DNA of 64,000 nucleotides, from the NCBI GenBank assembly GCA_039917855.1, contig JBDSIR010000146.1:2047-66046 (forward strand). The letters are read 5' to 3'. Source of the DNA: Gemmatimonadales bacterium. GTDB taxonomy: Bacteria; Gemmatimonadota; Gemmatimonadetes; Gemmatimonadales; GWC2-71-9. The notes beneath the pieces were generated by a model. The model had not been told where the DNA came from. It ran no database searches and saw only the letters and a program-made list of their open reading frames with translations. The position numbers and the translations under genes were made by a program. This document shows positions 26,486-50,443 of the stretch, one piece after another; position 1 is the stretch's first letter; every line of letters starts with the position of its first letter.

Positions 26486-26573
26486 GGTGACCAGTGACCA
26501 GTGACCCGTGACCGGGCCGACTGGTGCGATCTTCCCTCATAGGCCCGGTCACCGGTTACCGGTCACCGGTCAC
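26486..26573. repeat. Heptamer-array hairpin, GTGACCR type
   Basis: Left arm ggtgaccagtgaccagtgacccgtgaccgggcc, 24-nt spacer, right arm ggcccggtcaccggttaccggtcaccggtcac. The right arm holds the last aspS codons and its TAA stop. Confidence 0.9.
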
Positions 26574-28343
26574 TTTGAGGTGCAGCGCTTCAAGATCCTT
26601 CGCCTCGACCGGGGACGGGGCCCCTTCGAAGAGGGCCCGGAAGCCGGCGGTCTTGGGGAAGGCGATCACGTCGCGGAGCGAGGGCGCCCCGGCGAGGAGC
26701 ATGGCGATCCGGTCGAAGCCGAGGGCAAAGCCCCCATGCGGCGGGGCCCCCTGGGCCAGCGCGTCGAGCAGGAAGCCGAAGCGCTTGCGCTGGTCATCGG
26801 CGCTGATGCCGAGCTTGGCGAACACCGCCCGCTGCATCGCGGGATCGGTGATGCGGATCGAGCCGGAGCCCAGCTCCATCCCGTTGTACACCGCGTCGTA
26901 GTGGAGCGCGCGACAGCGACCGGGGTCGCTCTCGAAGTAGGGTGCGTCGTCGGGGTGGACAGAGGTGAACGGGTGATGGGTGAAGAGCCAGGTGCCCGTG
27001 GCCGCGTCCTTCTCGAAGAGCGGGAAGTCGACCACCCAGCAGAATGCGTGTTCTATCGTTGGTGCCGCATTCATGCGGCGTGCGAGCTCGAGGCGGACCA
27101 TCGCAAGCGCCGGACTCGTCACGCTGTCCGGTCCCGGTACCGCCACGAGGAGGTCTCCCTCCTTGGCGAGTGTCTTGAGCGACTCGAGCGTCTGTTCTCC
27201 CAACGCTTTCGCCCCCTGCCCCTCCCATCCCGCCGCCGTGCGCTTGACCCAGATCAGTCCGCCGGCCTTCTGCTCCTTGGCCACCGCGGTGAGCGCATCG
27301 AGCTCCTTCCGCGAGAGCGCGGCAGCTCCCGGTGCGACGATGCCCCGGAGCCGTCCGCCGCTATTCAGAGCGTCCTGCACGAAGGGGGCGGTGTCACCAC
27401 CGACCCTGCTGCTCAGGTCCTGCAGCTCGAGCCCCCAGCGAAGGTCGGGCTTGTCGATGCCGTACTTCTCCATTGCATCGCGGAAGGCCAGCCGGGTAAA
27501 GGGCCGTGGAATGGCGTGCCCCGCCTCCTCCCACTGTTCCACCAGTACCGTCTCGACGACCCGTTGGATGTCCTCCTGCGCCACGAACGCAGCCTCGATG
27601 TCGATCTGGGTGAACTCCGGCTGGCGGTCGGCGCGACTGTCCTCGTCACGGAAACAACGCGCCAGCTGGAAGTACCGATCCATCCCCGCGATCATCAGGA
27701 GCTGCTTGTAGATCTGGGGGCTCTGCGGCAGCGCGTAGCACTCCCCGGCGTAGATCCGGCTCGGCACCAGAAAGTCCCGCGCCCCCTCGGGGGTCGGTTT
27801 GGTGAGGATCGGGGTCTCGACCTCGATGAACTCGAGCTGGGTGAGCGTTCGCCGCGCGCGCTGCAGGAGGCGGTGGCGGAGGATCAGGTTCTTCTGCAGC
27901 TCGGGGCGCCGGAGGTCGAGCACCCGATGGCGCAGGCGAAGCTCCTCCGACGCGAGCTCCTCCCCTTCCTTCCGCGCCACCGTGATCGGCGGCGTGACCG
28001 CGGGCCCCACCAGCTTGAGCGCGGTGACGTGAAGTTCCACCTCGCGCGAAGTGATCGAACTGTCGCGTGCCGGCTCGGGACGCAGGTCGATCGTGCCCTC
28101 CACCAGCACCACCGACTCGGCGCCGATCGACGCCGCCCTGGTCATCACGTCGGCGGGGCTCCAGCGCGGGTCGAAGGAGAGTTGCAGCAACCCGTCGCGA
28201 TCGCGCAGATCGATGAAGACCAGCCCGCCGAGGTCGCGGACGCGGTGGACCCACCCGCCCAGGCGGACGGTCTGGCCCGCGTGGGCGCGCGTGAGGGATC
28301 CGGCGCGATGGGTGCGGTGGGCGGTAGCGAGAGGATCGGACAC
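26556..28343 (-). CDS. aspS: Aspartyl-tRNA synthetase
   Basis: ORF 26556-28568 trimmed to the in-frame GTG at 28343, just after the ptsN stop. Has GWVHRVRDLGGLVFIDLRD, FRDEDSRADRQPEFTQID, GGFALGFDR; about 595 aa. Confidence 0.93.
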   Translation of the reverse strand: MSDPLATAHRTHRAGSLTRAHAGQTVRLGGWVHRVRDLGGLVFIDLRDRDGLLQLSFDPRWSPADVMTRAASIGAESVVLVEGTIDLRPEPARDSSITSREVELHVTALKLVGPAVTPPITVARKEGEELASEELRLRHRVLDLRRPELQKNLILRHRLLQRARRTLTQLEFIEVETPILTKPTPEGARDFLVPSRIYAGECYALPQSPQIYKQLLMIAGMDRYFQLARCFRDEDSRADRQPEFTQIDIEAAFVAQEDIQRVVETVLVEQWEEAGHAIPRPFTRLAFRDAMEKYGIDKPDLRWGLELQDLSSRVGGDTAPFVQDALNSGGRLRGIVAPGAAALSRKELDALTAVAKEQKAGGLIWVKRTAAGWEGQGAKALGEQTLESLKTLAKEGDLLVAVPGPDSVTSPALAMVRLELARRMNAAPTIEHAFCWVVDFPLFEKDAATGTWLFTHHPFTSVHPDDAPYFESDPGRCRALHYDAVYNGMELGSGSIRITDPAMQRAVFAKLGISADDQRKRFGFLLDALAQGAPPHGGFALGFDRIAMLLAGAPSLRDVIAFPKTAGFRALFEGAPSPVEAKDLEALHLKVTGDR

Positions 28344-28345
28344 GT

Positions 28346-28801
28346 TCAGCGCGATTCGGCGTCGACGAGGGTCTGAATGAACGCTTCGGGAGTGGTGGCG
28401 GCGAGGAGGCGCTGGCGGACCTCGTCGCGGCGCACGACGCGCGCGATGCGGCTCAGCGCCTTGACGTGCTCGCCGGCGGCGGACTCGGGGCCCAGGAGGA
28501 GGAAAAAGAGCCGACACGCCTCGCCGTCGAGGGCATCGAAGTCGATCCCCGCCGTCGAGGTACCGCACACCATCTCGAGGCGCTGGACCACGGAACTCTT
28601 GCCGTGCGGCACCGCGACGCCAAGCCCGATCCCCGTGCTCAGCACCGCTTCGCGTTCCTCGACCGCCTGCAGCACATCCTCGACCCCGACCCCCGCACGC
28701 GCGGCGAGGAGCGTGGAGAGCTCCTTCAACACACCGGCCTTGTCGGCGGCATGGATGGGGACGCGGACACGGTCGGGATGAAGCAGGTCGGTGAGCTGCA
28801 C
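28346..28801 (-). CDS. ptsN: PTS IIA(Ntr)-type nitrogen regulatory protein
   Basis: 151 aa, GTG start. Has REAVLSTGIGLGVAVPHG and LFFLLLGPE. Confidence 0.85.
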   Translation of the reverse strand: MQLTDLLHPDRVRVPIHAADKAGVLKELSTLLAARAGVGVEDVLQAVEEREAVLSTGIGLGVAVPHGKSSVVQRLEMVCGTSTAGIDFDALDGEACRLFFLLLGPESAAGEHVKALSRIARVVRRDEVRQRLLAATTPEAFIQTLVDAESR

Positions 28802-28890
28802 GAGGGTAACGTAACCGGAGCGCGGAGGGGCGGCAACTAAAGTGGTGTCAATGAGTTACGGCGTAGGTGATGGCGGCTCCCTCTCCCTTT

Positions 28891-28949
28891 CCGCCTAACC
28901 CCCTGACCCCCTCTCCGCAAAGCGGAGAGGGGGGACCTCAGGGGGTGAG
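28891..28949. repeat. Palindromic element, CCTCACCCCCTGA..CCCCTCTCCGC family
   Basis: ccgcctaaccccctgaccccctctccgc aaa gcggagaggggggacctcagggggtgag forms a near-perfect hairpin just upstream of rlmN. Confidence 0.85.
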
Positions 28950-28965
28950 TTATCTTGCCTCCAGA

Positions 28966-48738: not shown

Positions 48739-49178
48739 GGGGTGTCGGTCTCGATCTTGGCGACGCGGCGGGAATGACGCCCCCCTTCGAACGGGGTGTC
48801 GAGCCACGCCTTGAGGATGGCCACCCCCTCGTCGTCGCTCAGGCAGCGCGCCGGGAGGACCAGGATGTTGGCGTCATTATGGGCCCGGGCCAGGTGAGCG
48901 ATCTCCGGATTCCACGCCACCGCGGCGCGGACCCCGTGATGCCGGTTCGCGGCGTAGGCCATCCCGAGCCCGGTGCCGCAGAGGAGCACCCCGCGCTTCG
49001 CCTCTCCCACCTCGACCTGATGGGCGACGGGATGGGCGTAGTCGGGGTAGTCGGTGCTGTCGAGGGAGTTGGTGCCGACGTCGATGGGATCGTAGCCGAG
49101 CTGCTTGAGCTCGGCGACCAGCCGTTGCTTGAGCGGGAAGCCGGCGTGGTCGGCCCCGATGGGGATGCGTTCGGGCAT
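48735..49178 (-). CDS. rpiB: Ribose-5-phosphate isomerase B
   Basis: ORF trimmed to [18 protein letters not shown]. Has [15 protein letters not shown]. Confidence 0.92.
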
Positions 49179-49192
49179 GGTTGAATCTAGAC

Positions 49193-49220
49193 GGCTAGGC
49201 GGTAAGGCGGTAAGGTGGCC
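49193..49220. repeat. Solo octamer array (ggctaggc ggtaaggc ggtaaggt ggcc)
   Basis: Tandem 8-mers upstream of the rpiB start. No inverted partner found nearby. Confidence 0.7.
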
Positions 49221-49268
49221 AACTGGCAAGGAACCGTCCCGTACCCACTCTGCCCCGCAGTTCGCCGG

Positions 49269-50327
49269 CTACGCGATATACAACTTCCGAAGGGGCTTGA
49301 TCGCTTCGATCCGCTCTTCCGCCAGGCGGTCGGCCGCGGCGTAGCTCGGGATCTTGTGCTCCGCGGCGATGGCGTAGACCCGGAGCGTGGTTTCGTAGAT
49401 GTCCCCCGCCTTCCGCCTGGCGCGCTCGAGCGCCCAGCCCTGCAGCTCCCCGTACACATTGATGAGCCCGCCACCGTTCACGACGTAGTCCGGCGCGTAG
49501 ACCATCCCCTGCTTTTCGAGCTGGGCACCGTGGCGCTCCTCGGCGAGCTGATTGTTGGCCCCGCCGCAAATGACCTCGACCTTGAGTTGCTTCAAGGTCT
49601 CATCGTTGATCGTGGCGCCCAGCGCGTTGGGCGAGTAGATGTCGGCCTTCTGGGAATAGATCTCGTCGGGCTTCACCGCCGTGGCGCCGGTCGCGTCGAC
49701 CATCGCCTTGACCTTGGCGGTGTCGATGTCGGTCACGATGAGCTTGGCCCCCTCGGCGTGGAGCAGGCCGCAGAGATGCTTGGCCACGTTGCCGCACCCC
49801 TGGACGGCGATGGTCTTGCCGGTCAGGACGTCGGAGCCCCAGCGGGTCTTGGCGGCGGCCTTCATCCCCATGTAGACGCCGTAGGCGGTCACCGGCGACG
49901 GGTCGCCCGACTTGCCGTGGAGCCCCACGACGTGCGGGGTCTCGGAGTGGATGTACTCCATGTCCGCGGGGCTCGTCCCCACGTCCTCGGCGGTAATGTA
50001 GCGCCCGCCGAGCGACTGCACGAAGCGGCCGTGGGCGCGGAACATCGCCTCGCGGTCCTTCCGCTTGTTGTCGCCCACGATGACGGATTTGCCACCGCCG
50101 AGGTTGACGCCGGCCACCGCGGCCTTGTAGGTCATCCCGCGGGCGAGCCGGAGCGCGTCGGTGATGGCATCGTCCGTGCTGGCATACTGCCAGAATCGGG
50201 TGCCTCCGAGTGCCGGGCCGAGCGTGGTATCGTGGATCGCGATGATGCCGAAGTAGCCGGAACTCGGCTCATGGCTGAGCAAGACCTGCTCGTGGTTGTA
50301 CTGGGCCATCGCCTTCTGGAGGTCCAT
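49269..50327 (-). CDS. Leucine (Leu/Phe/Val) dehydrogenase
   Basis: ORF trimmed to [10 protein letters not shown]. Has [37 protein letters not shown]. Confidence 0.9.
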
Positions 50328-50356
50328 GGATGCGTCCTGCTGCGGAAGTGTGTCAG

Positions 50357-50443
50357 GGTGACCAGTGACCGGTGACCAGTGACCGGGCCTCAAGAGAGGA
50401 GCTCACCAACAGGCCCGGTCACTGGTTACTGGTTACTGCTCAC
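50357..50443. repeat. Heptamer-array hairpin, GTGACCR type
   Basis: Left arm ggtgaccagtgaccggtgaccagtgaccgggcc, 22-nt spacer, right arm ggcccggtcactggttactggttactgctcac. The right arm edge holds the hbd stop. Confidence 0.9.

Follow-up and report, generated by a model that had tools for sequence, protein, structure and literature searches.

Inward-facing stop codons in the hairpin repeats of a Gemmatimonadales genome: a probable by-product of unit period and arm composition

Introduction

The closest described systems are the G-rich tandem heptamers GGGAATC in Xanthomonas and GGGGAYT in Nostoc, which are intergenic and lie mostly between co-directional open reading frames (ORFs) (Rehm et al. 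2015, PMC4692102). Each Xanthomonas genome holds 70-75 convergent pairs of GGGAATC arrays on opposite strands; arrays on the coding strand lie at most 50 bp from stop codons or overlap them, and those on the other strand lie directly upstream of ORFs (PMC4692102). A 64,000-nt stretch of a Gemmatimonadales bacterium (GenBank assembly GCA_039917855.1, contig JBDSIR010000146.1, positions 2,047 to 66,046 of the forward strand; hereafter the window) carries repeats of the same architecture under the same arm rule, namely pairs of a G-rich and then a C-rich array, close to a gene end and to the next start. Unlike GGGAATC, the Gemmatimonadales units are many (GTGACCN, GGTGAGC, GGCGGGTA, GTGCGAA and others), and most lack G-tracts for quadruplexes: GTGACCN, GGTGAGC and GTGCGAA have no GGG run, and only some families (GGCGGGTA, GGGTCGT) have one. 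Their units drift while the two arms co-vary, which is not reported for GGGAATC (PMC4692102). The subject here is the stop codons that several of these families hold in all three frames, a question that does not arise for Xanthomonas because GGGAATC is stop-free on both strands.

In marine Beggiatoaceae and some cyanobacteria, direct repeats of the heptamer TAACTGA carry stops in every frame of the forward orientation and in no frame of the reverse (MacGregor 2015, PMC4679880). Forward copies overlap only ORF ends and reverse copies can lie inside ORFs, a property of the unit that probably controls its distribution (PMC4679880). These repeats are AT-rich, have one unit sequence, a single inverted case and no predicted hairpin, and have been proposed to bind a post-transcriptional regulator (PMC4679880). 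Three-frame stops in one orientation, as in TAACTGA, occur in the GTGACCR, GGTRAGC and GGCGGGTA families but not in most others, and the Gemmatimonadales units differ and are arranged as inverted pairs. Both the idea of restriction by stop content, from TAACTGA, and the element type, from GGGAATC, are already published; these elements are unusually diverse.

Repetitive extragenic palindromes (REPs), bacterial interspersed mosaic elements (BIMEs) and REP doublets forming hairpins (REPINs), known from enterobacteria and pseudomonads, are abundant intergenic imperfect palindromes, often found within operons near stop codons, and are thought to affect mRNA stability. Liang, Rudd and Deutscher reportedly found in 2015 that a REP within ~15 nt of a stop codon lowers translation of the upstream gene. 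The short tandemly repeated repetitive (STRR) sequences of heterocystous cyanobacteria are intergenic tandem arrays of several different heptamers and have been known chiefly as targets for fingerprinting; in the STRR literature no account was found that pairs the arrays, states a rule for their arms or relates them to stop codons. The matches listed for GTGACCN arrays include Scytonema, Chroococcidiopsis and Aliterella, with inverted pairs in Scytonema. Each REP is a single palindrome of 20-40 nt, headed by a conserved GTAG or CGTC and linked to the REP-associated tyrosine transposase (RAYT) (PMC3733652). Unlike REP and REPIN, the arms here are tandem 7- or 8-mers without a conserved head. 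Mycobacterial interspersed repetitive units (MIRUs) are intergenic operon repeats of 40-100 bp, with a small ORF coupled to the downstream start; their translation signals mesh with the flanking genes and their insertion has little effect on expression (PMC12548453). The present elements likewise mesh their translation signals with their neighbours but, unlike MIRU, are hairpins built from heptamers.

A first-pass annotation of the window proposed that inward-reading stops and an RNA hairpin together form an evolved, frame-independent end to translation at cistron boundaries. Were the stops a selected device, they would mark cistron boundaries in a compact and natural way that does not depend on frame; the evidence favors a by-product instead. 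The arrays are probably arms of intergenic hairpin repeats whose stop pattern follows from the repeat period, the composition of the arms and purifying selection. A dedicated stop function is unsupported and appears unlikely.

Architecture of the elements

Arrays were listed with Tandem Repeats Finder (TRF), inverted pairs were called by a pipeline of TRF plus alignment, and stop triplets were tallied per frame on both strands of every arm in the window. G+C content of the window is 68.5%, and Pfam scans of about 50 of its ORFs give a dense map of housekeeping genes. The aspS product is identical to a protein assigned to a Gemmatimonadota metagenome-assembled genome, and its next hits are from Gemmatimonadales. 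The comparison set consisted of the window, 13 syntenic Gemmatimonadales loci (L121 and L128-L139 among them; aspS or serine hydroxymethyltransferase (SHMT) identity 65-93%) and at least 120 loci in a genome collection that match three successive GTGACCN units, the window's own genome not being among those listed. The syntenic loci were gathered mainly through exact-protein look-ups of aspS and SHMT homologues, and a metagenome scan with aspS gave seven loci, one of them close. The Gemmatimonadales set contains 37 pairs, of which 33 passed the score filter, in 20 unit families. Pairs from other phyla include those at L002, L017, L033, L068, L108, L110 and L114, among the GTGACCN matches listed.

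Dozens of arrays of period 7 or 8 lie in the window, the majority between genes. Most are paired, an array being followed after a spacer of 5-160 nt by its reverse complement, so that an element consists of a run of G-rich 7- or 8-base units, a variable spacer often bounded by GGGCC...GGCCC, and a C-rich reverse-complement run. Three successive GTGACCN units match nine times where 0.03 matches are expected by chance. At least 12 different units occur among the arms, with no common head. The elements occupy the gap from a stop codon to the following start codon: the distance from gene end to arm is -18 to +35 nt, and that from arm to next start is -2 to +29 nt on all flanks but three.

The strongest regularity in the arrays lies not in their stop content but in a rule on arm composition: read on either strand, a G-rich arm stands on the 5' side and a C-rich arm on the 3' side. 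Across the window and the 13 related loci, the inward strand has more G than C in 17 of the 20 families, equal amounts in two and the opposite in one (p = 1.4e-4). Counted by pair, the arm with G>C is on the 5' side in 34 of the 37. Because each arm is the reverse complement of the other, a property found inward on both counts as a single observation per element. The rule is kept in stop-free families (10 versus 1) and in elements between divergent (head-head) or convergent (tail-tail) genes. It also extends to other phyla, where among the matches listed it is kept 18 times against 3 opposite cases (18 of 22 families), in cyanobacteria, Bacteroidales, Anaerolineae and proteobacteria.

Stop content and composition

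The three GTGACCR elements and the GGTRAGC element carry TGA or TAA inward in all three frames of both arms and in no frame outward, exactly as the first-pass annotation had stated. In the GTGACC/GGTGAGC superfamily the pattern is genuine, and its effects can be seen where genes end. The counts of the annotation also agree with ours for TAG, present in three frames at 62984 and in two at 54161, and for GAGTCTA, with inward stops in three frames of the left arm and two of the right. Its general statement that outward strands are stop-free is false. GAGTCTA has outward stops in three frames of both arms, because CTAG is palindromic; TGGCTAC has stop-free inward arms and TAG outward; the GACCGCCN array has TGA on its outward-type strand; and GGGTCRT, which had been listed as a stop-free type, is stop-free on the valS coding strand but carries TGA outward in two frames of its left arm and inward in one frame, in the right arm only. 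Moreover, two genes, for a CAAX protease and purN, end at stops on the outward strand.

Three things would together make the pattern a by-product. First, any stop triplet in a unit appears in every frame within three copies, because periods of 7 and 8 are not multiples of 3; stops in all three frames thus mean only that the unit contains a stop triplet. Second, the G-rich inward strand holds stop triplets more often than the C-rich outward strand, because stop triplets lack C and two of the three contain G. Third, purifying selection would keep stop-bearing arms outside genes, letting them overlap a gene end up to the first in-frame stop, and stop-free arms could persist in tolerant coding segments too. 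Arms would grow and shrink by replication slippage, and arm-to-arm copying or selection for pairing may keep them complementary; the co-variation of the arms is observed, and either process is a candidate cause.

Shuffling the bases within each unit, which keeps its composition, reproduces the asymmetry. Among the 20 families, inward-only stops are found in 6 (4.0 expected), outward-only stops in 1 (1.1 expected), stops on both strands in 1 (1.0 expected) and no stops in 12 (14.0 expected); the excess of inward stops over shuffles has P = 0.17. In other phyla, with the GTGACC seeds excluded, five families have inward-only and four outward-only stops among the matches listed.

These counts bear directly on the proposal that arms were selected as frame-independent stops which act with the hairpin to bar ribosomes that have read through or shifted frame from entering the spacer and the cistron beyond. 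The commonest families do hold three-frame inward stops, but stop content is in line with the expectation from composition, and 12 of 20 families are stop-free yet occupy the same gene-tail positions. Families with outward-only or two-sided stops exist and their outward stops are used, by CAAX and purN; the G>C rule also holds between divergent genes, where no ribosome arrives; and the stops at 54161 face no gene. Positions 1, 2, 4 and 6 of GTGACC units are nearly invariant, so that the stop triplet is matched in conservation by positions 1 and 6. The G3-to-A changes, which preserve a stop (21 of 27), are consistent with ordinary transition bias and carry little information. Selection for frame-independent stopping is thus decidedly unlikely.

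Position relative to genes separates the two kinds of array no better. The first-pass annotation expected stop-bearing and stop-free arrays to be distributed differently, but in the window and its relatives a gene tail lies within 40 nt of 8 of 8 three-frame-stop elements and of 20 of 24 others (Fisher p = 0.55, small sample). A gene end lies inside an arm in 6 of 8 three-frame-stop elements versus 5 of 20 others that face a gene tail, a difference that favors selected stops at first sight and is almost tautological, as it needs a stop in the arm or a variant unit.

Several points weigh against the by-product explanation. At 4 of 5 independent sites the first arm stop shares the frame of its gene (p = 0.045), and TAA variants are enriched on the arms facing gene tails, with 11 units versus 3 (p = 0.057, the counts not being independent); both are weak hints in favor of selected stops. 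Arms with TAA-containing GTAACC/GTAAGC units include those at 26545, 40086, 46831 and 50417 in the window and at L121:1663, L130:11777, L134:8245 and L135:7145. A more specific form of the selection proposal casts the GTGACC/GGTGAGC arms, at the foot of a hairpin between cistrons, as 'bumpers' with stops in three frames that would end translation in any frame within a few codons and make indels at gene ends tolerable, the stem holding the stop beside the next start for coupling. The in-frame first stops and the TAA excess would be the trace of such selection; this scheme is highly improbable. Furthermore, the stop-bearing GTGACC/GGTGAGC superfamily has the highest copy number, and the G-rich/C-rich rule could itself reflect translation-linked selection. 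The census covers about 33 pairs and 20 families from two syntenic regions in related genomes and therefore has low power for a moderate excess of inward stops.

Gene ends in the arms

The eight gene ends listed by the first-pass annotation do lie in or at arms: those of aspS, ftsB, hbd, the Zn-ribbon ORF, the gmhB-like gene, the glycerate kinase, the ORF ending at 33769 and the AtuA partner (Table 1). Three further genes end at arrays, encoding enoyl-CoA hydratase (5617), purN (63803) and the CAAX protease (51460); the last two use stops on the outward or C-rich-type strand.

Table 1. Repeat elements and arrays of the window, in order of position; strands of genes are given in parentheses.
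Element	Position	Strand	Setting	Arms and stops
GTGCGAA element	1020..1192		between divergent DEAD/RecQ-like helicase (-) and Ser/Thr kinase (+, start 1245)	no stops on either strand
GGTCGTT element	5513..5619		enoyl-CoA hydratase stop TAG 5617-5619 adjoins right arm	outward TGA variants only
Single GTGCGAA-type array	5790..5826	-	within enoyl-CoA hydratase coding sequence	
AGGGTCG/GAGGGTG element	6392..6441		AtuA-partner gene stop TAA 6434-6436 in degenerate outer unit	
GTGACCR element	26486..26573		between aspS (-) and phoH (-)	arms 26486-26515, 26545-26573
10-mer CACGGAGGGA element	30069..30197		between radical SAM (+) and glyoxalase (+) genes	no inward stops
GAGTCTA double element	33614..33771		between convergent glycerate kinase (+, stop 33612-33614) and hypothetical ORF (-, stop 33769-33771)	
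GGCCAGTG 8-mer element	34860..35038		straddles 5' end of lumazine-binding protein gene (-)	
GTGACCR element	39971..40114		between DivIC/ftsB (-) and tRNA-Met (-)	arms 39971-40009, 40086-40114
GGCGGATN 8-mer element	41676..41794		between acyltransferase (-) and enolase (-); enolase start codon adjoins arm	
GGTRAGC element	46745..46859		between 64-aa Zn-ribbon ORF (-) and YjeF/Nnr (-)	arms 46745-46774, 46831-46859
GTGACCR/GTAACCR element	50357..50443		between hbd (-) and Leu/Glu dehydrogenase (-)	arms 50357-50386, 50417-50443
TGGCTAC element, two copies	51309..51568		between CAAX protease (-) and hbd (-), within 141-nt tandem duplication	
Unpaired GCGGGTAG array	54161..54196	+	directly upstream of thiolase (-); C-rich in gene orientation	TAG in 2 frames
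GGGTCRT element	58266..58349	+	in frame inside valS	coding strand stop-free
GGCGGGTA 8-mer element	62984..63197			left arm 62984-63013, weaker partner 63176-63197; TAG in 3 frames, + strand
GACCGCCN C-rich array	63786..63819	+		TGA on + (C-rich, outward-type) strand

In the GTGACCR element behind aspS, whose 29-nt spacer has GGGCC/GGCCC at its edges, the gene stops at TAA 26556-26558 in the third unit of the right arm and its protein ends in ...KVTGDR. DivIC/ftsB stops at TGA 40104-40106 in the second unit (C-terminus ...SASDR), hbd at TGA 50440-50442 in the first unit (...YSK) and the Zn-ribbon ORF at TGA 46856-46858, also in a first unit (...TTPA). The ATG of YjeF, at 46736, lies 8 nt past the other arm of the Zn-ribbon element. 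The gmhB-like gene ends in ...GGG at the first TAG (62990-62992) of the GGCGGGTA arm.

Other stops do not fit an inward rule. TAGs of the GCGGGTAG array at 54161 lie on a strand on which no neighboring gene reads into it. The purN gene stops at TGA 63803-63805 in the GACCGCCN array, and an in-frame ATG (63820-63822) follows directly after the array. The CAAX protease gene runs through copy 2 of the TGGCTAC element to a TAG (51460-51462) in the outward arm. The 141-nt tandem duplication (51310-51568) at this site copies the 3' end of the CAAX gene together with the element, and the CAAX C-terminus is ~22 residues longer than in L134.

Comparison with relatives suggests how the arms come to end genes. 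Native C-termini are kept (YSK, TTPA, DSAR), with the arm stop replacing the native stop. The hbd protein ends in ...SK or ...AK in all genomes compared, and where an element is present its stop is the TGA of the first unit. The end of the Zn-ribbon protein (...TTPA) is constant as well, followed by TGA, TAA or TAG. DivIC ends in ...DSAR (...DSTR in L139) at a TAG in element-free genomes, and in ...DSAR at the first arm TGA in L134. In the window a 1-nt deletion (40086-40119 compared with L134:18650-18675) removes one G, and termination therefore occurs two codons later at the TGA of the second unit, turning DSAR into DSASDR. The window DivIC is a real case of a frameshift absorbed by arm stops, with only two residues added, and counts in favor of the proposal of selected stops. 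Replacement of native stops and absorption of gene-end frameshifts by the arms are real effects; evidence that they shaped the arm sequence was not found.

The end of aspS is more variable. Among 120 homologues (P0001-P0120), the C-termini diverge after a conserved ...ALHLK into VTGDR, LKGER, VTGDL, QK, EIS, VTSDK and others. At least some of these tails are encoded by repeat arms, which makes annotated protein ends in this clade partly repeat-derived. For annotation, stop-bearing arms create variable C-terminal tails, as in aspS, and in these GC-rich genomes gene callers can extend ORFs across repeats whose arms are stop-free.

Orthologous sites and turnover

Elements are present or absent at the same site among close relatives. 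At the site between hbd and the Leu dehydrogenase gene, the window and L134 have an element and L135 and L136 have none. A miniature occupies this site in L139 (8310-8350), two GTGACNN units followed by three GGTCACN units without a spacer, and may be a nascent or a collapsed copy. Between DivIC and tRNA-Met, the element is found in the window and L134 and is absent from three relatives (L135, L136, L139). Between aspS and phoH, GTGACCG arms are found in the window and in L121, GGTGAGC arms in L130 and degenerate ones in L128; L129 has none and L131 a one-armed array, and in relatives of 65% identity aspS and phoH overlap (GTGA). Between the Zn-ribbon ORF and YjeF, every close relative has an element, of unit GGTGAGC, GGGTRAG, or CGAAGTG with a CTTACC remnant.

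At the acyltransferase-enolase site, five genomes have 8-mers of the form GGCGG-NNN, at 41676-41794 in the window and at L134:16914-17031, L135:12330-12448, L136:16933-17051 and L139:16929-17013. The variable bases of these units (ATN, TCN, GTA, CTGA) differ between genomes and are equal between the arms within a genome; the arms therefore evolve in concert. In the alignment 88% of cells are paired, and in six pairs both partners have changed. Covariation scores 0.217, compared with 0.10 in shuffles, 0 of 500 of which reach it, and with 0.04-0.07 in slid controls. The elements are thus old at some sites and recent at others, and are vertically inherited with fast concerted change of their arms. 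With many families, one arm rule, rapid turnover and co-varying arms, the clade is a good system for studying the origin of hairpin microsatellites.

Presence or absence between genomes whose flanking proteins are ~85-90% identical is also what would be expected of non-autonomous mobile hairpins, akin to MITEs (miniature inverted-repeat transposable elements) or REPINs, whose insertion by a transposase would take place at stop codons or beside them; the stops would then belong to the element ends or to the target site. Such mobility would account for the recurrence of the same unit families at many loci and in many phyla among the matches listed, for the common inner boundary GGGCC(TGA)...GGCCC, and for arms that begin exactly at the stop codon at several sites. 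It would also fit the Zn-ribbon site of L134, where a different family stands beside the CTTACC remnant of an older arm. However, the spacers of same-family copies are unrelated to each other, and no target-site duplication is apparent at the boundaries inspected, for which no formal search was made. At DivIC/tRNA-Met, the spacer (40010-40085) holds a promoter-like segment, TTGCGA-17 nt-TAGTTT, whose homologue in relatives lacking the element is the putative promoter of tRNA-Met. Resident DNA thus lies between the DivIC arms, which rules out a single contiguous insertion there. At one orthologous site both arms have drifted in unit type, and the spacers, judged by eye, show only patchy similarity between some genome pairs. 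No transposase domain, RAYT (the Y1 transposase) included, was found in the ~50 window ORFs scanned, in a view limited to the 64-kb window and ~20-kb related loci. Taken together, these observations make a mobile origin unlikely. MITE identity in particular was rejected on the unrelated spacers within families and the arms around resident DivIC sequence, along with the lack of an apparent duplication (no formal search).

RNA-level tests

Most elements lie between co-directional genes and run from a stop codon to within 0-29 nt of the next start, as would be expected of functional RNA hairpins that, like REP, stabilize the upstream part of a polycistronic mRNA or bring the stop and the next start together at the foot of the stem, so that coupling outlasts the insertion, with the stops incidental. 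With predicted energies of -31 to -150 kcal/mol the hairpins would be very stable, and their arms co-vary. Moreover, the GTGA overlap of aspS and phoH in distant relatives argues that coupling at that boundary is probably ancestral. On the other hand, fold energies show no consistent preference between sense and antisense; with no advantage in folding for the sense strand, the G-U signature of selection at the RNA level is missing. Given the putative promoter in the DivIC/tRNA-Met spacer, the right arm would lie in the tRNA leader and the two arms on different transcripts. Elements also lie between divergent and convergent genes and within genes, and no Rfam family other than tRNA-Met reaches the gathering score in the window, so that no element is matched. 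A function as RNA hairpins is therefore very unlikely.

A terminator scan of 33000-52000 calls none of the elements there, and no T-run tails follow the hairpins; its sole convincing site lies after tRNA-Met. Identity as intrinsic (Rho-independent) terminators is thus not supported for that region. With composition reproducing the asymmetry, outward stops in use, folds neutral to strand and terminator tails lacking, the evolved combination of stop and hairpin put forward in the first-pass annotation is not supported.

Stop-free arms inside coding sequence

Filtering by stop content, the weaker form of the same idea, is supported almost trivially, since arrays within coding sequence must lack in-frame stops. 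The accompanying claim that stop-free types are the ones found inside genes holds for valS, enoyl-CoA hydratase, the helicase N-terminus and signal peptides, but most stop-free elements are intergenic, including the one at 1020-1192 between divergent genes.

Where arms do encode protein, the segments are all tolerant, which is consistent with survivorship as expected if stop content merely filters where arms persist. The GGGTCRT element in valS is inserted in a variable N-terminal loop, directly before a conserved PPPNVT; the loop has 28 aa here, compared with 11-16 aa in relatives. In enoyl-CoA hydratase the array at 5790-5826 (..TPDFAPRTSH..) stands in place of a helix segment and leaves the length unchanged. 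The only in-frame start of the helicase downstream of 1160 is the ATG at 1064, in the spacer of the 1020-1192 element; this ATG is the likely start, and if it is used the left arm would encode N-terminal residues of the helicase. The kinase starts beyond the element, whose right arm is non-coding.

Signal peptides accommodate entire elements. Those at L136:13610-13696, L139:13611-13694, L130:2859-3041 and 34860-35038 in the window straddle signal-peptide regions, one arm corresponding to the charged N-region, the spacer to the hydrophobic core and the other arm to the cleavage region. For example, in the lumazine-binding protein the C-rich GGCCAGTG arm encodes part of the signal peptide (..LAHWPTGPLA..).

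Other features of the window

GATC looks enriched in the spacers, occurring in 16 of 32 compared with 5.2 expected from mononucleotide shuffles; this lead was dropped because the spacer density matches that of the window overall (11.5 versus 9.6 per kb). The tRNA-Met gene (39896-39970) is the sole RNA gene detected in the window. An ORF at 13797-15092 (-) has bacterial archaeo-eukaryotic release-factor-like domains (baeRF families 10, 2 and 3) and is conserved in relatives (L128); no link between this ORF and the repeats was found. Directly after valS, at the start of an ORF with a Big_5 domain, a 36-nt unit, AGGGGGAACACCACGGAACAACTCCCCTCCCCCGAC, is present in four tandem copies (60945-61095); judged by eye, without folding, it is seemingly self-complementary inside (AGGGG...CCCCT). 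In the AtuA region, GGGCCNGT arrays lie at 6793 and 7058.

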